The notes under the pieces: generated by a model
Databases searched by the model: none
The model's input: the letters and a program-made list of their open reading frames with translations, nothing else
What the model was told of the DNA's origin: nothing
In this document: piece after piece, positions 11,838-47,177 of the stretch
Layout of the letters: each line of letters starts with the position of its first letter
Numbering within the stretch: the first letter of the stretch is position 1
DNA from: Escherichia phage EC150
Sequence record: ON210137.1
Reading direction: 5' to 3' (one strand)
Length of the DNA stretch: 64,000 bases
Position numbers and translations under genes: made by a program

Positions 11838-14153
11838 TTATTTTGCTGATTTCAGCACGGCTATCTCTGCCTTGAGTTCATCAATCTGATCCATCAATGC
11901 GAGAATAGCCTCGTGGTGCAATGCCGCTGCAACGCCGTAAGTGTCAACTGACTTGATATCTTCGACAACAGTCCCATCCTTGAGTTCCGTGTTTGAATAT
12001 TTCAAAGTTTTTACTGCGTCAGGAAATACACCTTCTACATCTTGAGCTATAAATCCGATGCCATTCGGTTTCTCTGACTTATCAAGGCGCTCCCAAGTCA
12101 CACCCTTGATCAATCTCATCTTTCCTAACGGGTCGGAAATCCTTTGAATATTTGTTTTGACCCTCTCATCAGACGTGCTGACCCAGTTCCCTGCAGTAGC
12201 AGTACCATCAGGCATAAATTTGAAATCTGCTGCAGCGCCTTGCCCATTGTTTATGGATATTTGCGCGTGCATCAAATCAGTTCCAGTACCTCGAACGCCT
12301 CCGAATGTATAGCTGCCAGCATACCAATCCCCTGAAAAATATGATACATACCCAGGCGTTGACTGGTTGAAGTTTATCATCCTCATACCGTTGCTTTCAT
12401 ACGCTGAAACGCCTACTGAATTCAACGGTTGCACAACAAGGTCTTTTGGTCTGAGATATGCATTAACATTCAGCGCCCCGTCTGTCCTTTCCGTACTAAT
12501 TTGATTTATGGAGTTAGGGAAATAAAATGTGCCATCTTGCGCAAACTTCCATTCTTGCACCCCATTAGATATCACAGCACCTTGTTCAGACGTTAATCCA
12601 TCAATCTTACCGTATGCTTGCAAGAATGCTTGATACGCAATGTTGGTGCCAATTTTATATTCAGATTTTACACTGCCGCCACTGACAAGCGTTCCGGTTG
12701 CAGGTTTTACTGCGTCACCATTAATAACGCTCCAAGTCGTATTCGCAGCAGCAAATCCACCCGATGCACGAATCACCCAAACGCCTACAAAGTTACGACC
12801 CATTATTTCACTGTTTGAACGGCCATAAACCGGACTTACTCGCGAAGCATCAAAACTCACCCTAATAACACCATTACCAGTTACCGGTTCTGGTGACAAT
12901 GGTGTTTCTACCTGACCCGGTACAATAGCACCCGTCTGCCCGTAGGCGACGACGCCACCAATATCCCCGTAAATGTTTGGTGCAGCTGAATCAAACACAA
13001 CACCATCAGCGTTGGAGTTTGCGGTGCCATTTCCTGCGCCGTCACCTCGTCCATAAAGAGCGGCTAATGAACCGACTTGAACGCCGTTTTTGTCGGGCAC
13101 ACGGAAAGTCGTTGAGCCATTACCAAGAGAATACTTTCCGCGCTTTGTTGGGTCCGCAAGCCAATCCGCATCAGCAATAGGAGTCAGCATTTGAGCATAT
13201 GCCCAAAGCTCAGGCCAGTCTGCGCGGTTAAGCAATTGCCCGTCTGCAACAACTTCATATGGCTGGATGTAAGCACGGCTATCACGAAGATGAAAATCAC
13301 CAACACCATAGTTCATTACACCGTTCATGTTCGGTCCAACGGTGCCAGTGTTGATAAGGTTTTCAACCCAACGTTTAGTCGCAGCATCATAATCATTCAC
13401 AGGGTCACCAGCAAGCGGAGTTGGGCCTGTCGGTCGAATATTCAACCAAGCCTGCGCATTATCCCCTGATCCTGTGCCGCCCATGGAAGTGGGCACGATA
13501 TTTTGATCAGCGACTTGTCCGAATCCAAAAGCAGACTTCATGCCCTGAATAGTACTCTGCCCTGTGCCACCGTTTGCCACTGGTACTACATCAAGTTCGC
13601 TATAAACCTTTTTCCAAGGTGACCAAAAGTCGCCATTAAATACCCTGTTGTATTCAGGGCCAACCGTTGCTGTGTATTTTTGTGAACAAGCATTTGCTGA
13701 AATTTGGATTACTTCCAATACTCCAGACGATAAGGTTGGGTAGTTCAAAGCAGGTGATGCTGATAGACTGTTCGGCTGGTAATATTGGCCAAACCATGAA
13801 CCAGTCAAAGCATTGAGATTTATTCCGTTAGGAATCTCTCCAAAGTTTCGGACAGTACCCGTCAAAGTCGCAGCAGTAGTTCGAATGGAAAGCATGTCGC
13901 CAGCCGCCCATGCACGCGCTGCAGTTCCTTCCTGTGCACGCTGCACGGTCAGGACGTTTCCAACAACGGCTGTTACTGTGACGATTTCGAATTGGAGGCC
14001 TGTCGCAGCGTCTACGATTGTCGCCACTACACGCTCGTTTGCAGCCAAGGTCGGAAATCCCGACCCTGAGCGAATTGTGATTGTGGTGTCTGAAGTCGTC
14101 GTTGGCTGAGCGAGCGCGACCTCAAAGTTGTTTTTGAATATTAGCCTTGGCAT
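11838..14153 (-). CDS. tail fibre/tailspike with C-terminal intramolecular chaperone (peptidase S74-like) domain
   Basis: 771 aa; DAATKRWVE collar-like motif; Gly/Ser/Thr-rich body; C-terminal SDERVKTNI...ISDPLGK...GVTW...GFIAQDVEGVFPDAV typical of auto-cleaving chaperone domains. Confidence 0.85.
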   Translation of the reverse strand: MPRLIFKNNFEVALAQPTTTSDTTITIRSGSGFPTLAANERVVATIVDAATGLQFEIVTVTAVVGNVLTVQRAQEGTAARAWAAGDMLSIRTTAATLTGTVRNFGEIPNGINLNALTGSWFGQYYQPNSLSASPALNYPTLSSGVLEVIQISANACSQKYTATVGPEYNRVFNGDFWSPWKKVYSELDVVPVANGGTGQSTIQGMKSAFGFGQVADQNIVPTSMGGTGSGDNAQAWLNIRPTGPTPLAGDPVNDYDAATKRWVENLINTGTVGPNMNGVMNYGVGDFHLRDSRAYIQPYEVVADGQLLNRADWPELWAYAQMLTPIADADWLADPTKRGKYSLGNGSTTFRVPDKNGVQVGSLAALYGRGDGAGNGTANSNADGVVFDSAAPNIYGDIGGVVAYGQTGAIVPGQVETPLSPEPVTGNGVIRVSFDASRVSPVYGRSNSEIMGRNFVGVWVIRASGGFAAANTTWSVINGDAVKPATGTLVSGGSVKSEYKIGTNIAYQAFLQAYGKIDGLTSEQGAVISNGVQEWKFAQDGTFYFPNSINQISTERTDGALNVNAYLRPKDLVVQPLNSVGVSAYESNGMRMINFNQSTPGYVSYFSGDWYAGSYTFGGVRGTGTDLMHAQISINNGQGAAADFKFMPDGTATAGNWVSTSDERVKTNIQRISDPLGKMRLIKGVTWERLDKSEKPNGIGFIAQDVEGVFPDAVKTLKYSNTELKDGTVVEDIKSVDTYGVAAALHHEAILALMDQIDELKAEIAVLKSAK

Positions 14154-17807: not shown

Positions 17808-17845
17808 ATAGATTGATTCCCTTTCACTGTCAGGTGGCGTTAACA

Positions 17846-20221
17846 ATGAAAATTCTTGGCATAAAACTCTGGGAGAAGACGCAACCAGAAGCCGAACCAG
17901 CGGAGATGCCGCCAGGCGACCCATTGGCACCGTTTGAACGCCTTGAAAGGCGCGGCAGCGGTCAACGCTGGGAAAAGACTGAAAGCAATCGACCGACCTT
18001 TAAAACGGTTGATGACTTCCCTTTATATGAGCCTGATATTAATGGCGATGGTGTTGCAATCATAAAAGGTCGTTCAGTCGATTCCGCAACAGTATCCAAA
18101 AAGGTTATGGATAATGCCTTAAAGAACATCAGTTCAGAAGGGCAAGTCAACCCATACACAGTACCTATTCAACTTCAAAACTGGTATTTGTCACAGTCAT
18201 TCATCGGCTATCAAGCTTGTGCCATCATCGCACAGCATTGGCTGGTGAACAAGGCATGTTCCATGGTAGGCCGCGATGCGGTCCGTAAAGGTTGGGAAGT
18301 CAAATCCAGTTCTGAGTCAGAATTGTCAGTACAGGCAAGCGAACGCCTAAAGCAAATTGATAAAGAATTTAATATCAAAGAGCACTTAGTTGAAGCCGAA
18401 CGATTCAAAAATATTTTTGGTATCCGCGTCATCATATTTGATGTGCGTAGTGATGACCCAGAATATTACAGCAAGCCTTTTAACATTGATGGTGTGACAA
18501 AGGGGTCTTATAAGGGAATCATTCAGGTTGACCCTTATTGGATGATGCCGTTTCTGACGTCTGAAAACACAGCAGACCCTGCATCACAGCACTTCTATGA
18601 CCCAGAATATTGGGTAATCAGCGGACAACGTTATCATCGCAGCCACCTCATAATCTTGCGCAACGATGAGCCAGCTGATATTCTCAAGCCGACTTATATT
18701 TACGGCGGCATTCCTCTGACTCAGCAGATTTATGAACGCATCTATGCCGCTGAACGTACCGCCAACGAAGCGCCATTGCTGGCGATGTCCAAGCGTACAA
18801 CGACGCTGCGGACCGACGTTGACAAGGCTATTGCCAATGAGCGGTCTTTTGCAGAACGTCTGATGATGTGGATCAAGTACCGCGACAACTATGCAGTCAA
18901 AGTGCTTGGCCAAAAAGAAGAGATGGACCAGTTTGACATCAACTTGTCAGACTTCGACAGCATCATCATGAACCAGTACCAGCTTGTGGCCGCAATCGCA
19001 AAAGTTCCGTCGACCAAACTGCTTGGGACTTCGCCAAAAGGCTTTAACGCCACTGGTGAATTCGAGATGGTCAGCTATCACGAAGAGTTGGAAACGTGCC
19101 AGCAGCATGACCTGACAAAAATTCTCGACCGCCATTACAAAATCCTTCTCAAATCAGAAGGGGTGGATGTCGATGTTAAGGTTGCATGGGAACCAGTTGG
19201 CTCACTTACTGCTACTCAACTTGCAGAAATCAATGATAAGCGAGCCAACACTGGCAAAACTCTTATTGATGCTGGCGTCATTTCTCCTGATGAAGAGCGC
19301 GACCGCATCAAAGACGACAAAAACAGCGGCTACAACCGTCTGCCGGAAGACGCAGCAGAAGAAACCCCAGGGATGTCTCCAGAGAATATGGCATTGCTTG
19401 GCAAGTCTGCTGGTGAAGTCCTGCAAGGTAAGGCCGATATTGAACAGGCGAAAGCTGATGTCGTTAAGATGGGCGGCCAGTTCTATAGCGAAACAGGTAT
19501 TATGCCAGAGGGTGCCGCGCGCGGTGAGTTGGCGGAAAACCCTGACAAAGCGCCTGTCGAAATCAACATGGACGATACCGATGATGAATCGAGCCATCAC
19601 ATTGATGTCCTAACGCAGTTGAAAGAAGGGCTGGAGGGTATTGCGGATTACTACCTGAAAGAAGGTCAGGATGTGGATTTTGACCCTCAAAAAGATTCAC
19701 GGTCGGTGCAACCGTCTACCCTTCCAAGCGTTAAAGGACACGTAGTCAACTTACGCCACAACGTGGGTAAAATGGACGCAGCATCATTACCTAAGATGAA
19801 GTTGCACGGAATGATTCTTGGCATTGAGAATCCGCGAAACAGCATTCGTAGAGGAAACAGCATTGACGGTGAATGGGCCGTGAAGATGCCGCACCACTAC
19901 GGATTCATCAAGGGCACCAAGGGCGCAGACGGTGATGAAGTCGACTGCTTTGTGGGTCCAAATCTGAAGTCGCCGAAAGTCTTTATTGTGAACCAAAACG
20001 ATAACTACTCTGGCGAGTTTGATGAACACAAGTGTATGCTTGGATTCGATTCAGCAGAAGAAGCGAAAGAAGCTTATCAAGCATCATTTGGTAACGGTTG
20101 GAACGGCTTCGACTCAATCCACGAATTAGATGTGAACTCATTCAAGGAGTGGTTGAAGGGTGATTGCTCTCAAGCATACGGAGCACTCAATAATCCTACT
20201 AATTCACCGAAGCAAGGTTGA
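17846..20221 (+). CDS. portal protein with C-terminal inorganic-pyrophosphatase-like extension
   Basis: 791 aa from ATG after AGGTGG; position after terminase; C-terminal ~150 aa contains HYGFIKGTKGADGDEVDCFV, matching the family I pyrophosphatase signature as recalled. Confidence 0.8.
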   Translation: MKILGIKLWEKTQPEAEPAEMPPGDPLAPFERLERRGSGQRWEKTESNRPTFKTVDDFPLYEPDINGDGVAIIKGRSVDSATVSKKVMDNALKNISSEGQVNPYTVPIQLQNWYLSQSFIGYQACAIIAQHWLVNKACSMVGRDAVRKGWEVKSSSESELSVQASERLKQIDKEFNIKEHLVEAERFKNIFGIRVIIFDVRSDDPEYYSKPFNIDGVTKGSYKGIIQVDPYWMMPFLTSENTADPASQHFYDPEYWVISGQRYHRSHLIILRNDEPADILKPTYIYGGIPLTQQIYERIYAAERTANEAPLLAMSKRTTTLRTDVDKAIANERSFAERLMMWIKYRDNYAVKVLGQKEEMDQFDINLSDFDSIIMNQYQLVAAIAKVPSTKLLGTSPKGFNATGEFEMVSYHEELETCQQHDLTKILDRHYKILLKSEGVDVDVKVAWEPVGSLTATQLAEINDKRANTGKTLIDAGVISPDEERDRIKDDKNSGYNRLPEDAAEETPGMSPENMALLGKSAGEVLQGKADIEQAKADVVKMGGQFYSETGIMPEGAARGELAENPDKAPVEINMDDTDDESSHHIDVLTQLKEGLEGIADYYLKEGQDVDFDPQKDSRSVQPSTLPSVKGHVVNLRHNVGKMDAASLPKMKLHGMILGIENPRNSIRRGNSIDGEWAVKMPHHYGFIKGTKGADGDEVDCFVGPNLKSPKVFIVNQNDNYSGEFDEHKCMLGFDSAEEAKEAYQASFGNGWNGFDSIHELDVNSFKEWLKGDCSQAYGALNNPTNSPKQG

Positions 20222-33292: not shown

Positions 33293-35473
33293 GTGTCTGA
33301 CTCATTAGAAAAATTTGTTCTTCAATATACGGTGGACTTGAAAGAGTCCATCAATCGTCTTGAGCAATTGCAAGATAAGGTTGATCGGTTGATCAGACAA
33401 ATAAAGGCCGCTGGTAAGGACTTCACCGGAGCATTCAAAGATGTGTTTGGTGAGCTGAAGCCTCTCACAGCTGAACTGGGGTCCATTGACGGAATCCTTG
33501 CGCGGCTTACTTATCGCTTTGCCGCGCTCGTTCCTGTTGTCGCAGGATTGGCTGTCGTAGTCAAATCCATTGTTGATGTTCGAAAAGAATACGAAGCGCA
33601 AAGGAAGCTGGGTTTTGAAGCAGGACTTTCACCAATTGGCGTGGAGCAACTACAGCGACAATTGAATGAGAGTTCAGGCGGAGTTCTTGGTGCGCAAGGG
33701 TCAAGGGATTTGATCAGCAAGGCTTCTAATCTCGCATTCAACGCATACACCAACCCAGATGTTATGAACAAGGACAACTTGTTACTTAACAAGATGGGAA
33801 CCAGTCCTTTCAACAGTAACGGCGGCATCAAAGACACAAACCGGCTGCTTGATGAAATTGGCACAAAGCTGAGAAGTGTGAATGAGCAAACCGCTCGTGC
33901 TATTGGTGCTCTGGCAGGTTTTACCGCTGATGAAGTCCGTGCGCTTCGTGAGCGAAATCAATCAGTCAAAGAAAGCACCCGTATAAGCGACGAAGAAACC
34001 GCGAAGCTGCAAAGACAGCAGGTCGCACTTGAAACGATACGAAACAGCATGGGCCAAATTCAAGAAGACTGGCGACGCATTGAACTGGTAATCGGCGAGA
34101 ACGTGATGCCGGCATTCTCGACGCTTGTCAGCAAGACTGCCGATACAGTCGAAGGATTCCAGATGATGTTTCAAAGAATGTCTGATGGATGGTCTGAATT
34201 TGTCGACAATTTCATCGCTGACTTGAAACACCCGTTTGATAAACAGGCGGCTGTCAACGAGCGCCACGAGCGTGCCGTTGATAGATGGATCACTCAGATG
34301 GCTGACGGCGATGTGAAACGCCAGAGGAGTCAGGAGCAAAACGCGGCTGAACAACGTTCTGCGCAAGCACTTTTCACTCGCGATATAAACCTGTTTTCAA
34401 GCGCCGTTTCAACCTTTGCTGGTGTTATTGATGAGCGACAAGCGTGGGCTGCATGGGCTGGTGAGATAGGACGAAGCGCAGGCCAATCCGCAATGCCTGG
34501 CACGCCAGCACTAAGCACTGGTGCGACCGTAGGCAACAACTTGGGGTCAGGAAATCCGACTGCATATGACTCAATCTATGAGGAAGCCTCCAAGCGTTAT
34601 GGAATCCCTGTTGCGATGATGAAGGCCGTCACAGAAGTCGAATCTGGATTCAACCCTAATGCCGTAAGCGGAGCAGGCGCGACCGGACTGATGCAAATAA
34701 TGCCTTCCAACTTCAAGGGACTTGGTATCACAGACGGTAATGACCCAAGACAAAACATTATGGGCGGCGCTCAACTTCTCAAGGAATATTTAACTGCTGC
34801 CAATGGCGATTGGAATCTTGCACTGACTATGTATCACGGCGGATATGACCGCAGCGGATGGGGAAAGAACACCCGTGCATACCCTGGCAAGGTGATGGCC
34901 GCTCTCGAACGACAGGCGAATGGAGAATACGCCACGGGAGCGCCGCAAGGTGCACCAGTTACTCCAGTGCTTAGCGGTAGCGGAGTAGAAGCGTCAAAAG
35001 GCAGCTACGCTCCAGTACAGGGCCAATCCCGCCAAACGGTGCAATACAGACAGTTGCAAGAAGCCATTGCAGGATACCTAAACGTGCCAGTTGAGCAGCT
35101 GATGCAAGGACAAGTCAACAAAGGTGATATTGACTTTGCTCAAACTTACCTTAAACTTGGAACGCAAAGGGATTATATTAAAAACATGCAGCTGGCTTCA
35201 ACTCCAGGTGTAAGGCCGAACATTCAGGCCGAAGCCATGAAGAATGCTCGTCTCGCGGCATTCCAGCTTGAAGCATTCCAGAAATACGGCGGCGACCTTT
35301 CCGCGAATAGTCGACCTGGTGGGCGTGATATTACTATGGGTCAGAAAAACGTTGTCATCAACGTCAACGGCGCTCAAGACCCAAGAAGCACGGCGATTGA
35401 GACTAAGCGTGTGCTTGAACAAGATGATATAAACGACATAAACAACCTTACTGCTACACCTTTGAAGTGGTGA
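33293..35473 (+). CDS. tape measure protein with lytic transglycosylase (SLT) domain
   Basis: 726 aa; coiled-coil-rich N-terminus; TEVESGFNPNAVSGAGATGLMQIMPSNF ... YHGG matches SLT catalytic region. Confidence 0.85.
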   Translation: MSDSLEKFVLQYTVDLKESINRLEQLQDKVDRLIRQIKAAGKDFTGAFKDVFGELKPLTAELGSIDGILARLTYRFAALVPVVAGLAVVVKSIVDVRKEYEAQRKLGFEAGLSPIGVEQLQRQLNESSGGVLGAQGSRDLISKASNLAFNAYTNPDVMNKDNLLLNKMGTSPFNSNGGIKDTNRLLDEIGTKLRSVNEQTARAIGALAGFTADEVRALRERNQSVKESTRISDEETAKLQRQQVALETIRNSMGQIQEDWRRIELVIGENVMPAFSTLVSKTADTVEGFQMMFQRMSDGWSEFVDNFIADLKHPFDKQAAVNERHERAVDRWITQMADGDVKRQRSQEQNAAEQRSAQALFTRDINLFSSAVSTFAGVIDERQAWAAWAGEIGRSAGQSAMPGTPALSTGATVGNNLGSGNPTAYDSIYEEASKRYGIPVAMMKAVTEVESGFNPNAVSGAGATGLMQIMPSNFKGLGITDGNDPRQNIMGGAQLLKEYLTAANGDWNLALTMYHGGYDRSGWGKNTRAYPGKVMAALERQANGEYATGAPQGAPVTPVLSGSGVEASKGSYAPVQGQSRQTVQYRQLQEAIAGYLNVPVEQLMQGQVNKGDIDFAQTYLKLGTQRDYIKNMQLASTPGVRPNIQAEAMKNARLAAFQLEAFQKYGGDLSANSRPGGRDITMGQKNVVINVNGAQDPRSTAIETKRVLEQDDINDINNLTATPLKW

Positions 35474-36934: not shown

Positions 36935-37660
36935 ATGGCAGAAAAGTTAACCCAACTTACAAGCCCCAACCAAACTGACAAATCAAGTATGTTTGCCGCG
37001 CTTCAGGGAATGCTGGACCGTGGCAAGTATACCACTGATGGCATGATTCCTGCGCAAGTAATATCTTATGACCGCAAGAAAAATTTAGCAGTCATAAAAC
37101 CTGTTATTCATTTCGTAAGTCTTGATGATAAGCCAGTGGAGCGTCAACCTTTGGTGTCAATTCCGGTACTGGCAATCGGCGGCGGCGGATTCGTGATCAA
37201 CTTCCCTTTGAAGGAAGGCGACTTGGGCTGGATATTCGCTGGCGACCGCGAGTTGTCGACATTCCTTGAAGAATTGAAGCCGGCCGCGCCTACCAATGGC
37301 CGTGTAAAAACTTTCGCTGATGGACTGTTCATACCGGATGTATTCCGAAAATACACCATAAGCGGAGAGGATGCAGGGTCAATGGTAATTCAATCCCTCA
37401 GCGGCGCTGTGAGAATTGCACTAAGCGATGACTCAATAAACATAATTGCGTCTGCTGGAGTAAACGTCAAGACCCCGATAACCACTATCGATCAACAATT
37501 GATAGTAAATGGAAAGGCAACATTCAATGGTGGGATAGAAGGCAAAGAAGGAACGACGGCAACGCTTCCGACTGGCACAACGGTCGGTGGCATTGATGTA
37601 TCCACTCACGGGCATATCGGTAACGGGCCTGGAAACAGAACTGGGAATATGATAGAATGA
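36935..37660 (+). CDS. baseplate spike/central-spike-like protein
   Basis: ATG 6 nt after AAGGAG; Gly-rich VLAIGGGGFVINFPLKEGDLGWIFAGDRE segment. Confidence 0.45.
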   Translation: MAEKLTQLTSPNQTDKSSMFAALQGMLDRGKYTTDGMIPAQVISYDRKKNLAVIKPVIHFVSLDDKPVERQPLVSIPVLAIGGGGFVINFPLKEGDLGWIFAGDRELSTFLEELKPAAPTNGRVKTFADGLFIPDVFRKYTISGEDAGSMVIQSLSGAVRIALSDDSINIIASAGVNVKTPITTIDQQLIVNGKATFNGGIEGKEGTTATLPTGTTVGGIDVSTHGHIGNGPGNRTGNMIE

Positions 37661-38928
37661 GTGCACAATATTCTTACATAGTAAGCACTGGTGTGATCAC
37701 CATTGACACGGCAGATTTATTGGCTGATATTCAAGGTGAATGGATTGAGTCTTTAGGGGTCGGGCTTGATGTTGATGCTTCGACGCCGCAAGGCACGCTA
37801 ATCGCAACAGAGACGTTGGCAAGAACTTCAGTGATGAAGAATAATGCCGAATTGGGAAGTCTCATCAACCCTAACTACTCATATGGAGTATACCTTGATG
37901 CAATAGCGGCGCTTCTTGGCATCGAGCGCACAAAGAATGTAAGCACAATGTTGAAAGGTGTGACTGCAGAGGGAACGCCGCTGCTGGAAATTCCTGCTGG
38001 AAGTCTTCTTACTGATTCAAATGGTACATACTGGTATGTGCTGGAAGACGTTCAAATCACTTCGACTGGCAAGACAAGCAATATGACTCTTGCTTCAAAA
38101 GAGTATGGCTCATTCACTGTTGCGCCTGATGAAGAGTTTACAGTTGTGCAAGGTTATGACGTCATCGGATGGTCAAGAACTTATTCAACATCATCAACGA
38201 CGACCGTGCCAGGCACGCAATACATGGGCGACGGAGCATTAAAGGCCGCTCGCGTTAAGCGTCTTTACCAGCAGGGAATCGCATCGCTTGGTGCCATTCG
38301 CGCTCGCGCCATGTCGGTCGACGGTGTAGAATCTGTGATGGTCGTGGAGAATGACACGGGAGTCCCTGGAACGGTGCGCGGCATTACGTTCTCAACGCCT
38401 AACGGTGTTTGGGTATGTGCAAGCGGAACATTTGACAAGCAGGTGTTTGCGGAGACGATATTCAAGGCGAAGATGGGCGGTCAACCTTGGGACTTTGGTG
38501 CTACTAATCAAGGGAATCCGGTAAACTCGCCTGATGGAATCGAAGTGGTCGATGCAGAATCACAGTTGTCTTATTTCGTCAAATTTAACACTGCAGTGAT
38601 ATATGATTTGTATGTTGACATAACCGTTTCAAGAGGAACGGCGACCGCTGATGCAGAGTCCATTATTGCCGCTGTACTAAATTACGGAAATGGCAATTTT
38701 AACGGTGAGCAGGGATATACAGTAGGCCAATCTCAATCTTCTTTTGAAATTGCTTCGGCAGTATCCTGCGAATATCCAGGACTTTATATCAAAGATTGCA
38801 AAATTGCAGCAGTTAAAAGCGGACAGGCAGCGCCAACTTATCCTTCCGATTATGGCAGCGAGTGGATTGCCAATCCTTGGGACAAGGCCAATACTATGCG
38901 CGGCTTCATCAACGTTAAATTTGTGTGA
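37657..38928 (+). CDS. baseplate J-like protein
   Basis: 423 aa; position after spike and before wedge/fibre genes. Confidence 0.5.
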   Translation: MSAQYSYIVSTGVITIDTADLLADIQGEWIESLGVGLDVDASTPQGTLIATETLARTSVMKNNAELGSLINPNYSYGVYLDAIAALLGIERTKNVSTMLKGVTAEGTPLLEIPAGSLLTDSNGTYWYVLEDVQITSTGKTSNMTLASKEYGSFTVAPDEEFTVVQGYDVIGWSRTYSTSSTTTVPGTQYMGDGALKAARVKRLYQQGIASLGAIRARAMSVDGVESVMVVENDTGVPGTVRGITFSTPNGVWVCASGTFDKQVFAETIFKAKMGGQPWDFGATNQGNPVNSPDGIEVVDAESQLSYFVKFNTAVIYDLYVDITVSRGTATADAESIIAAVLNYGNGNFNGEQGYTVGQSQSSFEIASAVSCEYPGLYIKDCKIAAVKSGQAAPTYPSDYGSEWIANPWDKANTMRGFINVKFV

Positions 38929-38934
38929 GGAACT

Positions 38935-41673
38935 ATGCAAAAGTTTGACACAAACCTGTTGCAAAACCTTAAGTGGATGCAGAACAACGCGCCAAACATC
39001 ACATCTTTGGTTCAGAAGAAGAGTGATTGGTATGAGCGATATCAAGATCAGTTTTGGATTGACTGGTACAAAAACATATTCAACATTGATACTTGTGATG
39101 CAATGGGCATCTATATTTGGTGCGACATCCTATGCATACCAAGAGACTTTGTTGACTTAAGTAACTATGAGCACAACTGGGCATTCGGGCCAACACGCGA
39201 CAACTTTGAAGGGCCGGACAATATCGGCGGCAACTTCTTTGGTGCTGGCGGAAAGGTTGTGAAAAACATTGAAGAAGCGCGCATCCTTCTGAAGCTTCGT
39301 TATCTGACGCTTACAAGTGATGGCCGCATCGAAAGCATCAACCGTATGCTTAAGTGGATTTTTAACCGTGGGGAAGCTTGGGATTACTCTTCATCCCGAT
39401 ACGCATATGTGACAGACAATACTCAAGGCGCGGTGTCTTCTTCTGAATCAACAAACGGTTCATTCCTTCTGTATGACTGGCAGGGGTCGACTGAGATTCA
39501 GCACGATTATAAACAAATTCTTTTGAGTCACGGCAACAACGCAGGACTTACCATAAGTGGGGTGGCAGGGACTGTTTCGCGAATGGCACACCCAGACTGG
39601 TATTCATGGGGTAATGGGTCCGGCGCTGGTATTGTCGGCGGTGATACACGCCAATATGGCGGCCCTGACTATTACGGCCAACTGTGCGGTGATTACCCAG
39701 GAGAGGCCATAGAGAATTTCGCCAACGCAGTACGGGTCATCAAGACTGCTTCCAGCGGCGAGCCTGTGTATTCTTTGGCCAGTAATCCAAGTGCCCAATC
39801 TATTGCGCTTCCTTCTCAGGCTGGTGTCAACGTTTGCTATAGCTTCTACATAAAAGTGCTTTCTGAAAACGTGGCTTCTGTTTCCGTAACAGAGAACAGT
39901 GATGCATCGAGTAATGGAAAACTTTTCGACCCAGTGACTGGGCAGTTCAACCTTGACTCTTCTTTGAGTTATTTCATCACAGGCAAGTTCGACGGTGTGA
40001 GAAGGGAATCAAACCGTGGTGGCATCAAGGCAATCGGCGGCGATTGGTACAGAATCTGGATTGTAGAACAAACTGCGAACGCGACAGCTGGGGTAAACAC
40101 AAGCTTTTCAATTGAGTTGAAAGCAACTGCCGCTGGATCAACCCAGACTCGCGAATTGCCTGAAGGGTCTGATGCACTTCTTTTTGGATACTCCATTTGC
40201 GTTTGCGACCCTGTTCAGAATCCTAATGGGCCTGAGCCTTATTTCTATGGGACTCAAAATCCGCCTGCAGATGGAACAGCAATTTTGTCTGTCACGGCAG
40301 GAACGCTCAACAGCATTTCTTGCGCAAACGGTCCGTTGACGACAAGAAATGGCGTGGTGGGCGAGTCATTTATGCAGCCTGGGTCATCACTTGCGTACTC
40401 TGGTTCAATCGGCGGCTACCCGTACCCAGGAAACGCCACTCTAATCGCAGAAACAGACGGAATCAGACGCTCATGGAACGTTAGCCGATTGGACGGAGTA
40501 CCGCCGCCGCCGACCGCTGACTATTACATGGAATACGTCATCGGGCCTTATTTCGCCAACAACTTGTCTGATAACTTTAAGACGCTAGTTGGTGACAGGA
40601 ATGAAGGATTCTTGCCAGCAAATGCCGGAATACGTTGGCAGCTTTACCAAGAAGTCGCAGACTTATCTGATATTGATTTGACTGTCAGCAACATAACAGA
40701 CACGCGAGTAGGATTCGAAACGGAAGGTGTCGCATGGATTAACACTGACGGCATCATCAGAGTTGGCGGCATTAACGAGTGGCCGTTGAACAACTTCAAA
40801 GGTGTTATACGACAGCTTGAGTCTTTGAAAGGTGTGAACCAAGTTATCGACGGCGCACTTGTCAACGACTATTCAATCTCAAAAGCATCAAGAGATGACT
40901 TTGGTCGTGAAATCCCACGTGCCGCGATCACAAACTACTGGCGATACACACAGCCCAATGACGGCACATCTTTTGGCAACATCGTCAAGGACGGAGACAA
41001 CACGGTAACGGCAACGCCAATAAGCGGTGTGCCCAACCAGTTTCCATCATTCAAGCTTTCCGCTACAATAGGGACTGTGCCAGCGTCCGGCTATGCACGC
41101 GCTGTACTTGCTACTAAATACACTGGCAGCCTGACTGGTCCTTTGTCATTTATCGCAATAGTTAAAAACAACACGGTAAACGGTCAAAAACTTTTCGTAA
41201 CCGTACCGGATGGTATGGGCGGCTATATCCCTAAATTCTACAGCATAGGCGCAGGTGATTTGCAACGTATCGAAATTGACCTTGCCGCTGAGATTGTTGC
41301 AGGAACGACTTGGGATGGTTCGACGGGTGGAGTCAGTATTGGTTTGATATCAGGGAAAGACTTGCCGACCGAAGTTGGTACGACTCTTGAACTTGATATT
41401 TTAAGCTTGATGCTTGTTTCTGGTAATACGATGAATGCGCTTGCGATTTCAACAAGCGAAGATTTTGCAAAGAAAACTGCAACTTCTATATACATCAAAA
41501 ACCCAGGGTCACTGGCGACTGGAGTGCAATTGATAGCTTCGAATGGGGATGTTGTAGCGACAGTAAACTTTCCAAGAAGTGCTGCTGGCGGTTATGTTTC
41601 AAGCATGAATATAACTGACTTAACTGGTGATTGGGCATCAACCCTTTTATCAAAAATTAAATACATCGTGTAG
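38935..41673 (+). CDS. baseplate wedge / tail-fibre-associated structural protein (912 aa)
   Basis: Large Gly/Ser/Thr/Asn-rich protein downstream of baseplate J-like gene. Confidence 0.55.
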   Translation: MQKFDTNLLQNLKWMQNNAPNITSLVQKKSDWYERYQDQFWIDWYKNIFNIDTCDAMGIYIWCDILCIPRDFVDLSNYEHNWAFGPTRDNFEGPDNIGGNFFGAGGKVVKNIEEARILLKLRYLTLTSDGRIESINRMLKWIFNRGEAWDYSSSRYAYVTDNTQGAVSSSESTNGSFLLYDWQGSTEIQHDYKQILLSHGNNAGLTISGVAGTVSRMAHPDWYSWGNGSGAGIVGGDTRQYGGPDYYGQLCGDYPGEAIENFANAVRVIKTASSGEPVYSLASNPSAQSIALPSQAGVNVCYSFYIKVLSENVASVSVTENSDASSNGKLFDPVTGQFNLDSSLSYFITGKFDGVRRESNRGGIKAIGGDWYRIWIVEQTANATAGVNTSFSIELKATAAGSTQTRELPEGSDALLFGYSICVCDPVQNPNGPEPYFYGTQNPPADGTAILSVTAGTLNSISCANGPLTTRNGVVGESFMQPGSSLAYSGSIGGYPYPGNATLIAETDGIRRSWNVSRLDGVPPPPTADYYMEYVIGPYFANNLSDNFKTLVGDRNEGFLPANAGIRWQLYQEVADLSDIDLTVSNITDTRVGFETEGVAWINTDGIIRVGGINEWPLNNFKGVIRQLESLKGVNQVIDGALVNDYSISKASRDDFGREIPRAAITNYWRYTQPNDGTSFGNIVKDGDNTVTATPISGVPNQFPSFKLSATIGTVPASGYARAVLATKYTGSLTGPLSFIAIVKNNTVNGQKLFVTVPDGMGGYIPKFYSIGAGDLQRIEIDLAAEIVAGTTWDGSTGGVSIGLISGKDLPTEVGTTLELDILSLMLVSGNTMNALAISTSEDFAKKTATSIYIKNPGSLATGVQLIASNGDVVATVNFPRSAAGGYVSSMNITDLTGDWASTLLSKIKYIV

Positions 41674-41683
41674 AGGAACGGCA

Positions 41684-43471
41684 ATGCCAACACTTATTAA
41701 CAGACCTTTCGCGCAAAGCGGTGATGTATCCGTGGTGCCGGATGCAAGCCCAAGCGGTTATGTGAACTTCCAGCGCGGCTACACCCCTGACTATGCACTT
41801 GCCCTGGAGGCTGGAAACGTCGCCGCGAAAGCTGTTGAGCGCGAATCAATGAACTGGTTGCTGAATTTGATTACAGACAACCTTATGTTTATTCAAGATC
41901 ATGGCGCTCAACAATATTTCTCTTCTGACTTGAAGCCGGATGGATACCCGAAAAACGCCATCGTAGTAAGCAACTCTGGAACGCCTTCAGCGCCTGAGTG
42001 GCGCATCTTTCAAAGCGTGGTCGACGGCAACACAAGCGCCGTACCAGCTAACGGAGAAACGGAATCTTGGCAGGAATTAACGTTGCCCAGCGAAGCGCGA
42101 AAATACATTCCGATGCCTGCTGGCGGCGATGCGCAAAACCCGTACTTTGTTCGCGGATTGATTTCAAGTTTTGTGGACTTCGATAATATTACGACTTCCA
42201 CCACTATTGTAATTCAATCCGATTCCGTCGCTGCTCTGTGCTCTAACATCCCGAATGCGGTTGGCGCAACGAAGGTTGCAGGTCGGCTGCAGGTCTGCGC
42301 TTGGCAGGTCGATGCACAAACATTTGCCTTGCAGCAATATACATCAATGAATGGCTATTTGTTTACTCGCTCTTACACTTCTGGTGCTTGGAGTGCTTGG
42401 ATTCAAAATGCCACTGTTCAAGACGTGCAAATCGGAACTCCAAACCTTGCATCTGGTAAAGGCGCGCAAGATATAATCCTCACCGTTCCAGCAGGGTATT
42501 CATGGCCACCTTCTGCGGGTAGTCGTTTGACCATCGTCAATGACGTGACTACTACCGGACCTGTCACCGTGACCATTGGTGTAAACAAAGTTGCCGTTCT
42601 TGGATTCGACGGCGGCGAGTTACCAGCTGGCGCTATCGTAGGCTTGTTGCCATTCACCATCATTTATGACGGCGCTGTTTGGCGTCTCCTTCAGGCATTT
42701 GGCGCGGCGCAAATCGGCGTTGATGCTACTGAGCCGCAACAGTTTGTTACAAAGCGCCAACTCGATGCTTTGGCTGCGAAGTTGATCACTATGGGTGATG
42801 TATTCGAAGTAGGTGAGACTCGATTCCTCACCAACGGGACCAACCCAAACACTAAACTGGGCGCTTACGGTCAGGTATGGACACGACTTCCTGATAACAT
42901 GGTCATCAGAACATCTGGCACGGCGCGAAACGGTCTTGCCACTGGCGGCGCGGACTCTGTTACTCTTACCGCCGCCATGCTTCCTCTCCACAATCACAGC
43001 GTCAACATAACAACGCGCCAGAGCGGACCATGGTCCAATACAACTGGAGACGCAGGTAACCATAACCACACAGGCGATACAAGCCAAAACGGCGCTCACG
43101 TCCACGGTATGGATGCAGCAGGGAATCACCATCACGACAGCGGTTGGGGAGAGTCAAACGTTCAAGATGCAAGGTACGGCGTTTATGATGGAACGCAAAA
43201 CAACTTCGGAAGTCGAAAGGGCGGCGACTGGGATAACTACAAATACAATACTTCAACTAATGGCAACCATGTCCATAATATTCAATCTTCTGGATCACAC
43301 ACCCATGGTTTGAATATAAATTACGCTGGTAATCATAGCCATGGCTATACACTTCCCGCTCACACTCACGATGTGGTCGGGAATACTGGCGATGCAGGAC
43401 AGTTGGTGCCAACGGCTGTTGCGACTTTGCCGCGATACGTTGTTTTGAATGGCTGGTACAGAAGCGCATAA
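41684..43471 (+). CDS. tail fibre with His-rich repeated C-terminal region
   Basis: 595 aa from ATG after GAGGAA; C-terminal HNH...NHNHTGD...HVHG...NHHHD...NHVHN...SHTHG...NHSHG...HTHD repeats. Confidence 0.7.
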   Translation: MPTLINRPFAQSGDVSVVPDASPSGYVNFQRGYTPDYALALEAGNVAAKAVERESMNWLLNLITDNLMFIQDHGAQQYFSSDLKPDGYPKNAIVVSNSGTPSAPEWRIFQSVVDGNTSAVPANGETESWQELTLPSEARKYIPMPAGGDAQNPYFVRGLISSFVDFDNITTSTTIVIQSDSVAALCSNIPNAVGATKVAGRLQVCAWQVDAQTFALQQYTSMNGYLFTRSYTSGAWSAWIQNATVQDVQIGTPNLASGKGAQDIILTVPAGYSWPPSAGSRLTIVNDVTTTGPVTVTIGVNKVAVLGFDGGELPAGAIVGLLPFTIIYDGAVWRLLQAFGAAQIGVDATEPQQFVTKRQLDALAAKLITMGDVFEVGETRFLTNGTNPNTKLGAYGQVWTRLPDNMVIRTSGTARNGLATGGADSVTLTAAMLPLHNHSVNITTRQSGPWSNTTGDAGNHNHTGDTSQNGAHVHGMDAAGNHHHDSGWGESNVQDARYGVYDGTQNNFGSRKGGDWDNYKYNTSTNGNHVHNIQSSGSHTHGLNINYAGNHSHGYTLPAHTHDVVGNTGDAGQLVPTAVATLPRYVVLNGWYRSA

Positions 43472-43479
43472 GGTGATTT

Positions 43480-44124
43480 ATGATTAATGCAAACGTAATA
43501 TCTAAAGGGACCGGATGCAGCATGGATGTTGCAGAGAAATGGGTGGACCCTTTCAAGCAGGCTTGTGAGCACTACGGAATCAAAAGCAAGAATGCCATCG
43601 CGGCATTCCTTGCAAACGTAGGAGTAGAGACGGGCAGCTTGAAGACCTTTGTGGAAAATCTCAACTACTCTGCTCAAGGTCTTGCCAATACATGGCCTAG
43701 TCGTTACAGCGTCAGCGGTCGCTCTGGAAGTGCCCCGAACTCATTGGCCCTGTCGATTGCCCGTAAACCTGTGGAAATCGCCAATAATACATATGCAAAC
43801 CGCATGGGCAACGGTTCAGTAGCATCTGGCGACGGTTGGAAGTACCGTGGCCGTGGTGCCATTCAGCTGACTGGAAAGGCCAACTATGCGGAATATACGC
43901 GTCAATCAGGCTATGATGCATTGAACAATCCTGATATTCTGACTGAACCAAAATACATTGCTGACAGCGCGGCATGGTTCTTTAAGAATAGCGGCTGTAT
44001 TCCTCTTGCGGATGCAGGAAATTTTGATTCAACCGTTAAGCGGATTAACGGGGCCGCGCCGAACGCAGCAAACCACGGTGAGTTGCGAAGAAAGCGTTAC
44101 AAAGATGCACTAGCAGTTATGTAA
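43480..44124 (+). CDS. endolysin, glycoside hydrolase family 19-like
   Basis: AIAAFLANVGVETG and GDGWKYRGRGAIQLTGKANY motifs typical of GH19 lysins; no signal peptide. Confidence 0.8.
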   Translation: MINANVISKGTGCSMDVAEKWVDPFKQACEHYGIKSKNAIAAFLANVGVETGSLKTFVENLNYSAQGLANTWPSRYSVSGRSGSAPNSLALSIARKPVEIANNTYANRMGNGSVASGDGWKYRGRGAIQLTGKANYAEYTRQSGYDALNNPDILTEPKYIADSAAWFFKNSGCIPLADAGNFDSTVKRINGAAPNAANHGELRRKRYKDALAVM

Positions 44125-46072: not shown

Positions 46073-46662
46073 TCAAACTCCTTATTCATCACTTGTTCCA
46101 GCGCATAGGCATAAGCCTGATCAGTCGATTTGATAAACGTTCCGTTGTACATCACACCTTTACGGTCCTTGATGTCTTCATAGGCGGCTTGAGCGCAATC
46201 AGACAGTCGAAGTCCATAATCATGTGCTACGCCGGAAAGATAATCGACTGCGCCCATGATGGTGACATCAATATCCATACTTTGATTTTTAGCAATGGCG
46301 TCACCAAGCCGTCCAAGAGTCTTTGCCAAGCGAAGGATAAACGAGTGAGGGTGAGCGCCTTTGTCAGCGCAACCGCCGCCGTTGATGTCTTCGATTTTTG
46401 CACCGTTTTGCGCGGCAAGAATAGTTAACACAACAAGGCAATCGCCGATGTCATCCTTGATTGCGGATTGTAAATCACAGATGGCCTGCTCTGTATATCC
46501 GATTTCAGGGTCAAAGAACACAAGGTCATGTAATTGATCAACGTGGTCGGTCAACTCCCCAAACTCGCTAATAAGCTTCGGGTATTGGTCCTTAAGGTCG
46601 CAGCCTTGGATGATGTTACGTTCAGAAGCCCACTGGCGAATGTTTGCATAAATCTGGTTCAT
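46069..46662 (-). CDS. mazG: MazG-like nucleoside triphosphate pyrophosphohydrolase
   Basis: KLISEFGELTDHV and DIGDCLVVL motifs of the all-alpha NTP-PPase fold. Confidence 0.7.
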   Translation of the reverse strand: MNQIYANIRQWASERNIIQGCDLKDQYPKLISEFGELTDHVDQLHDLVFFDPEIGYTEQAICDLQSAIKDDIGDCLVVLTILAAQNGAKIEDINGGGCADKGAHPHSFILRLAKTLGRLGDAIAKNQSMDIDVTIMGAVDYLSGVAHDYGLRLSDCAQAAYEDIKDRKGVMYNGTFIKSTDQAYAYALEQVMNKEFE

Positions 46663-47177
46663 TTATTTTCCTTTGATGCGTTGAATTGATCGATTTTAAT
46701 TTTAGCCTGATTATAAGTATCAATCAAGCTATTAACCTTCTCTTTTAATCGGTTTGTTTCTGCGGCGAACTGAACAAGAAATCTGACATCGTCTTCTGAT
46801 AGTCCACAGTTTCCTTCTGGGATAGAGAGGCGTCCAGTGGTCGCAGAGTCGGGCACACTCCTGAGTAACTCACGGGAGCAGCTGAGTTGCTCGCGCAGCT
46901 TGATATTCCCAGACTTGTAACGAGCAATAGTGTCATCAGCAACCAGTTGCGCTTCCTGGCGACCCTTCTCATATGCCGATGCCGATTCAACCTGTAAAGA
47001 TGCAATTTGCTCTTCGAGTGCATTTATCTTGTCCTTACGCTCATTAAGCGATGTCAGATATTGATTATCCTTTGCCAGTGATGCGTTGGTTTGCTGCAGG
47101 TCTTCAACGTATGATCCAGCGGCAAACGCGCCAACAAGGGCAAGAATCTTCAGGAGCGGTACAATTCTTTCTATCAT
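46659..47177 (-). CDS. Rz-like inner-membrane spanin (i-spanin) candidate
   Basis: 172 aa; N-terminal transmembrane segment IVPLLKILALVGAFAAGSYV then coiled-coil-like domain with Cys residues; o-spanin-like ORF embedded in +1 frame. Confidence 0.45.
   Translation of the reverse strand: MIERIVPLLKILALVGAFAAGSYVEDLQQTNASLAKDNQYLTSLNERKDKINALEEQIASLQVESASAYEKGRQEAQLVADDTIARYKSGNIKLREQLSCSRELLRSVPDSATTGRLSIPEGNCGLSEDDVRFLVQFAAETNRLKEKVNSLIDTYNQAKIKIDQFNASKENK
46745..46972 (-). CDS. embedded Rz1-like outer-membrane lipoprotein spanin (o-spanin) candidate
   Basis: Alternative frame inside 46659-47177; MRRVARKRNWLLMTLLLVTSLGISSC gives basic n-region, hydrophobic core and lipobox-like ISSC; short Pro/Cys-containing mature part. 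Confidence 0.35.
   Translation of the reverse strand: MRRVARKRNWLLMTLLLVTSLGISSCASNSAAPVSYSGVCPTLRPLDASLSQKETVDYQKTMSDFLFSSPQKQTD

Follow-up and report, generated by a model that had tools for sequence, protein, structure and literature searches.

A predicted gp37-type collar-needle-head tip with a hypervariable head on the conserved baseplate tail fibre of Escherichia phage EC150

The fibre locus

In the window analysed here, a stretch of 64,000 nucleotides from Escherichia phage EC150 (record ON210137.1) to which all coordinates refer, a gene at 41684-43471 on the plus strand codes for a tail fibre of 595 residues with a dense array of His-any residue-His (HxH) motifs in its C-terminal region. 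The source phage belongs to the genus Wifcevirus, myoviruses of E. coli and Shigella with genomes of ~68 kb. We regard it as probable that this array is the needle of a receptor-binding tip of the collar-needle-head type known from T4 gp37, placed C-terminally on the canonical, presumably trimeric, baseplate fibre. The segment predicted to form the head of this tip is the sole hypervariable part of the protein. The gene, its parts and its upstream partner are as follows:

41684..43471, plus strand: tail-fibre gene (595 residues and stop), the conserved Wifcevirus baseplate fibre, orthologue of Bas99_0031
41684..42799, plus strand: N-terminal baseplate anchor and proximal shaft (residues 1-372), with a phmmer match to PDB 9b45
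42800..42988, plus strand: collar-like domain (residues 373-435), ending GGADSVTLTAAMLP directly before the first HxH motif
42989..43135, plus strand: predicted outward needle strand (residues 436-484), HxH motifs 1-4 (HNH at residue 436, HNH at 460, HVH at 472, HHH at 482)
43136..43267, plus strand: head insert, the predicted distal receptor-contacting tip (residues 485-528, DSGWGE...DWDNYKYNTSTNGN), 44 residues in the largest gap between motifs
43268..43369, plus strand: predicted return needle strand (residues 529-562), HxH motifs 5-8 (HVH at residue 529, HTH at 539, HSH at 551, HTH at 560)
43370..43468, plus strand: C-terminal return segment (residues 563-595), closing with LNGWYRSA, the signature of the family
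38935..41673, plus strand: upstream gene, a baseplate wedge 2/triplex homologue and probable attachment partner of the fibre

The reading frame runs from the ATG at 41684 to the stop codon at 43469-43471 and is preceded by a Shine-Dalgarno sequence, GAGGAA (41674-41679), which lies 4 nucleotides before the ATG and just past the stop of the preceding gene. The GTG at 41627 given in the program's list of open reading frames was dropped as a start, since it would entail a 47-nucleotide overlap with the upstream gene and the ATG at 41684 has its own Shine-Dalgarno sequence. Annotated orthologues, including the coding sequence of phage Bas99 (ManiWeber), have the same extent as the frame from this ATG. 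The gene matches 28 Wifcevirus records, ECML-117, WFH, FEC19 and Bas98-100 among them, at 87-95% nucleotide identity with coverage at or near 100%. It stands in the order baseplate J-like wedge (37657-38928), 912-residue DUF2612 protein (38935-41673), fibre and GH19 endolysin (43480-44124), and the same order is seen in Bas99. On full-length orthology and synteny, we thus assign the fibre to the conserved Wifcevirus tail fibre, the orthologue group of Bas99 Gp32. In the Bas99 record (PQ850618), the Gp32 of the published description is Bas99_0031 and its Gp114 is Bas99_0109; the offset between the two numberings grows along the genome, so that cross-referencing needs care.

A non-random array of paired histidines

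The in-frame translation of 42989-43372 (+) gives 128 residues bearing HNH, HNH, HVH, HHH, HVH, HTH, HSH and HTH, in exact agreement with the eight clusters over ~128 residues reported by the initial annotation. The array proper spans residues 436-562 (42989-43369), and 17 of the 18 histidines of the fibre fall within the block. Successive motifs are spaced by 24, 12 and 10 residues, then by 47, and then by 10, 12 and 9, giving two runs of four; six have the form G-x-H-x-H and the remaining two the form LP-x-H-x-H. The same annotation had placed the block at the C-terminal tip of the protein. It does lie within the C-terminal tip domain, but it is not the C-terminus of the sequence, as 33 residues follow it, and the physical tip is expected to be the 44-residue insert between motifs 4 and 5 rather than the motifs themselves.

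G, N, H, S and T are abundant in this region, a composition that could by itself throw up paired histidines. In 100,000 shuffles of the whole protein, however, the mean number of HxH motifs was 0.51 and the maximum five, with eight reached in 0/100,000. Shuffling the His-rich 128 residues alone raised the mean to 2.1, and eight motifs were reached in just 8 of 100,000 trials; hence, the pairing of the histidines is itself non-random, over and above their abundance. A search for tandem and direct DNA repeats under the block found none, which excludes a low-complexity or recent-duplication artefact. Among the other open reading frames of at least 100 residues in the window, in all frames, none has more than one HxH motif.

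Homology of the tip to T4 baseplate and fibre proteins

For remote comparisons, the tip was taken as the C-terminal 225 residues. An initial single-sequence search with it returned 8 distant proteins, and a 95%-identical cluster (P0250) emerged in the profile search alone. The homologues recovered are prophage tail fibres of Photorhabdus, Xenorhabdus and Izhakiella that share 27-36% identity with the tip and carry the Pfam domain PF21939 (Gp10_C). A profile built from the tip and these relatives (A1), run with hmmsearch against PDB, matches the crystal structure of the T4 gp37 tip (2XGF, E 3.4e-6) and the C-terminal domain of T4 gp10 (2FKK, E 0.0064). Likewise, hhalign comparison of a 100-sequence family alignment with the gp37 tip gives a probability of 98.7% (E 1.9e-16, 35 columns), and pairwise BLASTP aligns residues 460-564 of the fibre with gp37 917-993 (E 5e-5). 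These alignments bring the motifs of the two proteins together: hhalign pairs motif 1 and a later motif of the fibre with H883/H885 and H915/H917 of gp37, and BLASTP aligns the return strand with gp37 966-993, a stretch containing three of the tip region's seven HxH motifs. In gp37, the head is preceded by motifs at 883, 915 and 929 and followed by motifs at 966, 980, 989 and 998, the spacings being 32 and 14, then 37, then 14, 9 and 9. Thus, by sequence comparison the fibre tip is homologous to the gp37 tip, and the likeness to HxH arrays of T4-type long-tail-fibre tips proposed from the sequence alone turns out to go beyond mere resemblance. The same comparison is upheld by features that the two proteins share, namely the G-x-H-x-H form, motif spacings of 9-14 residues and a division into two runs by a central insert.

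The regions flanking the motifs point in the same direction. The collar-like domain aligns with the YPVG...GG.DS.TL...LP.H.H region of the PF21939-bearing fibres of Photorhabdus and Xenorhabdus. A C-terminus of the form W..R.A is kept across the family, with W221 invariant in profile A1 and W221 and R223 nearly invariant in profile A2; the end of the fibre matches that of T4 gp10 (...YRWIRIA), and the end of gp37 is similar (...NYIVRLA). The EC150 fibre itself yields no PF21939 match at E<=0.1 with the whole protein or at E<=10 with the 225-residue tip, and the gathering score is not reached, whereas relatives at ~36% identity match the model with E-values from 1.6e-10 to 2.5e-19. Its membership of this family is therefore transitive only, running through these relatives and the A1 match to 2FKK. 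The tip is not recognised in direct Pfam and NCBIfam scans and is recognised only by PHROGs tail and tail-fibre families. The tip family as a whole is very large, comprising 18,859 cluster representatives at E<=1e-3. In 157 collected proteins, mostly its best-scoring representatives, HxH counts of 4-5 are the commonest within a range of 1 to 15, so that eight motifs are unremarkable for the family.

A fainter relationship links the head insert to the receptor-binding domain of the T4 short tail fibre protein gp12. The insert aligns with gp12 445-484 in a constant register across methods, with motif 4 falling on H445/H447, and scores weakly: 13.5 bits against a cut-off of 23.8 for Pfam PF14928, E 0.6 with phmmer, E 0.16 with A1 and E 1e-4 in pairwise BLASTP. 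A profile of the head alone (21 sequences) places gp12 in the expected register at E 4.4, and we accordingly treat a gp12-like head as a lead only. AlphaFold2 models of the 225-residue tip as a monomer had a mean predicted local distance difference test score (pLDDT) of 46.9 with 9 sequences and 56.1 with 100; the best-predicted part was the collar, at a moderate pLDDT of 60-80, and fold searches with these poor monomer models gave no match.

A hypervariable head between invariant histidines

Comparison of seven Wifcevirus orthologues of the fibre separates the needle from the head. All eight HxH motifs are kept in the orthologues and all 16 paired histidines are invariant, while the residues in the middle of the motifs vary (N/S, V/S, and H/Y in HHH). 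Variable columns are distributed over the parts of the protein as follows:

N-terminal part: 13 of 370
collar: 2 of 65
outward strand: 6 of 49
head insert: 16 of 44
return strand: 4 of 34
C-terminal segment: 3 of 33

The head is thus the only hypervariable segment (16/44 against 28/551 elsewhere, Fisher p 5e-9), and its nucleotide identity to the window is 69-83%, compared with 83-97% elsewhere in the gene. It comes in three alleles, RKGGDWDNYKY, RK-TDYDNYKF and AR-SDYDNYKY, with a one-residue indel among them. These do not track the similarity of the gene as a whole: ECML-117, for instance, is 97% identical in the N-terminus and 74% identical in the head. The distribution of alleles being out of step with whole-gene similarity suggests mosaic, recombinational exchange of the tip. 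Such a hypervariable and mosaic head is the pattern to be expected of the end of the fibre that would contact the receptor.

More distant relatives bear on the topology of the tip. The closest relatives outside phages, at 36% identity, have counterparts of motifs 1, 4, 5 and 8 only. The EC150 fibre thus exceeds them by two motifs both before and after the head, which is what lengthening a hairpin would demand. In 123 family representatives, the numbers of motifs before and after the largest gap are correlated (r 0.75), although this is a rough heuristic.

A Pbunavirus-type anchor and its baseplate partner

The N-terminal part of the fibre has a quite different affinity. With phmmer, residues 2-372 match residues 4-368 of 'gp47 Tail fiber' of Pseudomonas phage Pa193 in PDB 9b45 (E 5e-32). 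In the cryo-electron microscopy structure of Pa193, residues 1-340 of gp47 form a trimeric beads-on-a-string fibre on the baseplate triplex loop, with six fibres per virion, and the fibre is bound by loop 80-113 of gp46 (PMC11456595). The product of the gene directly upstream of the EC150 fibre, which also matches Pfam DUF2612, is in turn homologous over residues 4-185 to the baseplate wedge 2/triplex protein of Pa193 and E217, with phmmer matches to 'gp46 Baseplate wedge 2' of 9b45 (E 1.2e-41) and to 'Triplex gp45' of 8env (E 4.4e-41). With a gp47-like N-terminus and a homologous baseplate partner upstream, the fibre is the canonical baseplate-attached fibre of this phage, and on the homology of both components we place it among the Pbunavirus gp47-type baseplate tail fibres. 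The initial annotation called it the second tail fibre; this agrees with published usage and can be made more exact as the canonical baseplate-attached fibre, a homologue of Pbunavirus gp47.

The upstream DUF2612 protein (912 residues, 38935-41673, plus strand) shares only residues 4-185 with the Pbunavirus wedge 2/triplex proteins, which have ~500 residues. Its remaining ~730 residues have no clear match, the hits being PHROGs of unknown function and, weakly and below the cut-off, NF048003, a head-spike-fibre domain of GTA (E 0.002); they could form a further baseplate module exposed at the surface. Another tail fibre, of 770 residues (phrog_6921, E 5e-216), is encoded well away from the baseplate genes, at 11838-14153 on the minus strand; it corresponds to the published T-shaped, dual-receptor-binding Wifcevirus fibre (Gp114, or Bas99_0109).

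Proposed architecture of the tip

Taken with the published structures of related tips, these results allow a model of the distal fibre. The chain would leave the collar and run outward through the first four HxH motifs, form a small distal head (residues 485-528) and run back through the other four, and the last 33 residues would then return to the collar, ending in the WYRSA signature common to gp10. Such a collar-needle-head topology, with the chain doubled back at a small head, has been described for tips of this kind (PMC12609058), and an AlphaFold-Multimer model of the Bas99 orthologue has a gp37-like tip with HxH motifs (PMC11990801). In a trimer, a beta needle of six strands, three running outward and three returning, would have eight levels, at each of which every chain would contribute the two inward-facing histidines of one motif, the six together holding one metal ion octahedrally. 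The gp37 tip binds seven iron ions in just this manner, each held octahedrally by HxH motifs of three chains, and octahedral iron bound by three HxH motifs is likewise seen in R-pyocin fibres and in the P2 and phi92 spikes (PMC6116203). By analogy with gp37, the metal of the EC150 needle would be Fe(II), with Zn(II) also possible. The ions would fix how the three chains align as they fold and would make the needle more rigid; contact with the host surface would fall to the head. Were a virion to carry six fibres, like those of the related Pbunavirus phages, eight sites in each would amount to up to 48 ions per particle. The model is in line with the metal-stabilised receptor-binding needle suggested by the initial annotation.

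Relationship to known fibres

The nearest described counterpart is Gp32 of ManiWeber (Bas99), which corresponds to the EC150 fibre in both gene and locus (88.6% nucleotide identity, identical HxH positions). Humolli et al. (PLoS Biol 2025, PMC11990801) described it as a 'second tail fiber' kept across the genus, with a gp37-like tip and conserved HxH motifs, and modelled it as a trimer; like ours, this description is based on prediction rather than experiment. The two proteins differ solely in allele: the EC150 fibre has 595 residues and the GGDWDNYKY head, and that of Bas99 has 594 residues and TDYDNYKF.

With the T4 gp37 tip (residues ~785-1026, PDB 2XGF), the EC150 fibre shares, besides significant sequence similarity and the form and spacing of the motifs, the two motif runs around a central head and, by prediction, the succession of collar, HxH needle and head and a C-terminus heading back to the collar. 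The EC150 fibre differs in having eight motifs (4+4) in place of seven (3+4), in the sequence of its head, which is also slightly longer (a gap of 47 residues against 37), and in its setting, the tip being borne on a Pbunavirus-type baseplate anchor instead of the gp34-36 long-fibre assembly. A further difference lies in the following gene. T4 gp37 requires gp38 and gp57A. In EC150, no gp38-like or other tail-fibre chaperone gene comes next after the fibre; instead, the GH19-type endolysin gene (43480-44124) begins 8 nucleotides past the fibre stop. The gp37-like tips of the Sf14 fibres likewise appear, from the Sf14 paper, to do without a separate chaperone.

Outside the genus, the closest relatives of the tip from cultured phages are the Felixounavirus fibres (Bas63 gp26/gp27 and Sf14 gp52/gp53), with ~27-34% identity over 99-100% of the tip. 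They too are described as having a collar, needle and head, with 6-7 HxH motifs and a doubled-back chain, but they differ in the anchor and shaft at the N-terminus and in having fewer HxH motifs. In the Pbunavirus fibres (gp47 of Pa193 and E217), the relationship is the converse: the N-terminal 370 residues and the upstream baseplate partner are homologous, whereas the distal 590 residues of gp47 are unrelated to the EC150 tip and have no match to an HxH needle. Among the smaller T4 proteins, the gp10 C-terminal domain (PDB 2FKK, PF21939) has the collar and the C-terminal signature in common with the EC150 fibre, and the gp12 receptor-binding domain (PDB 1OCY, PF14928 S_tail_recep_bd) shows the weak alignment noted above over the head and motif 4, including its zinc-binding H445/H447. 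Their Pfam models stay below threshold on the EC150 fibre, and gp12 has a single HxH motif and gp10 none, as against eight.

Alternative explanations

The most serious competitor retains the whole structure and disputes its function. The fibre would serve as a conserved element with a mechanical or trigger function, or would, in the manner of the T4 short tail fibres, bind a secondary receptor that is itself conserved, for example the lipopolysaccharide (LPS) core; host range would be set by the T-shaped fibre (11838-14153, minus strand). We deem this possible, though on balance not the case. The high conservation of the protein within the genus led Humolli et al. to propose a 'more mechanical role', and the dependence of their isolates on the O16 O-antigen, which they showed, was ascribed by them to the fibres (PMC11990801); the small number of variable columns in the N-terminal part and the constant register of the head alignment with the gp12 receptor-binding domain can be read in the same sense. 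The gp12 similarity is, however, non-significant at the database level (E 0.16-4.4), and a head that is hypervariable and mosaic, with three alleles, presents the picture of a receptor surface under diversifying pressure, which argues against a purely mechanical, receptor-blind role. A further possibility is that the fibre functionally matches the T4 short tail fibre but sits on a simple pyocin-like baseplate, its eight-metal gp37-style needle bearing a gp12-like head with exchangeable alleles that, once the O-antigen has been engaged by the T-shaped fibre, binds a secondary receptor, for example an epitope of the LPS core. This proposal is speculative and we would not favour it at present; if true, the small hypervariable head would co-determine host range and trigger contraction, and its role would not be merely 'mechanical'.

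Other alternatives concern the metal and the histidines themselves. That a metal-loaded needle naturally holds zinc or another divalent ion instead of iron strikes us as unlikely: zinc occupies the HxH site in the crystal structure of T4 gp12 (PMC6116203), with whose H445/H447 motif 4 of the fibre is in register, but iron was identified at the HxH sites of gp37, the R-pyocin fibres and the P2 and phi92 spikes (PMC6116203), and metals are not distinguishable from sequence alone. Far less credible is the published 'Ferrojan' or Trojan-horse hypothesis for HxH-bearing fibres (PMC11705849), by which fibre iron would mimic siderophore-bound iron and dock the phage on a TonB-dependent iron receptor. 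For this purpose a virion could offer up to 48 ions; yet the gp37-type fold buries its ions, unexposed, on the three-fold axis (PMC6116203, PMC12609058), Wifcevirus isolates depend on the O-antigen (PMC11990801), and nothing in the window indicates a siderophore receptor. As for the notion that the clustering of histidines is a compositional accident, low complexity or recent duplication with no structural role, which the make-up of the region might invite, it is refuted by the shuffles, the repeat search, the invariance of the paired histidines amid varying neighbours, and the retention of the same motifs in thousands of distant relatives; we see next to no chance of it. The gp37-type needle with a receptor-contacting head hence remains the reading that we prefer.

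Other genes in the window

Several further genes in the window deserve mention. At 17813-20221 (+) lies the gene for an 802-residue head protein, residues 99-523 of which match portal families. Its C-terminal module (residues ~660-790) matches very large virion-associated proteins, including DarB-like antirestriction and internal virion proteins, which suggests a fused cargo or ejection domain. The 726-residue protein encoded at 33293-35473 (+) belongs to a 'lytic tail protein' family, has a lytic transglycosylase-like segment at residues ~420-590 and may be the tape-measure protein. Finally, a 92-residue frame at 46745-47023 (-) is wholly contained, in a different frame, within one of 172 residues at 46659-47177 (-); the positions of this pair match those of an Rz-like i-spanin with an embedded o-spanin annotated in Bas99.

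Significance

The metal needle of the HxH type is well described and, as the size of the tip family shows, widespread, and its occurrence in an orthologue of the EC150 fibre is already in print; no new question is therefore opened by the needle, and the one small addition made here is the hypervariable, mosaic head insert. The chief value of the analysis is a correct annotation of the block, namely as the distal tip of the baseplate-attached fibre in a little-studied group of E. coli phages that replicate fast, with a predicted complement of ~8 buried metal ions per fibre. The receptor-contacting residues are probably 485-528, and swaps of the head would consequently be more promising than swaps of the whole fibre for the engineering of host range.

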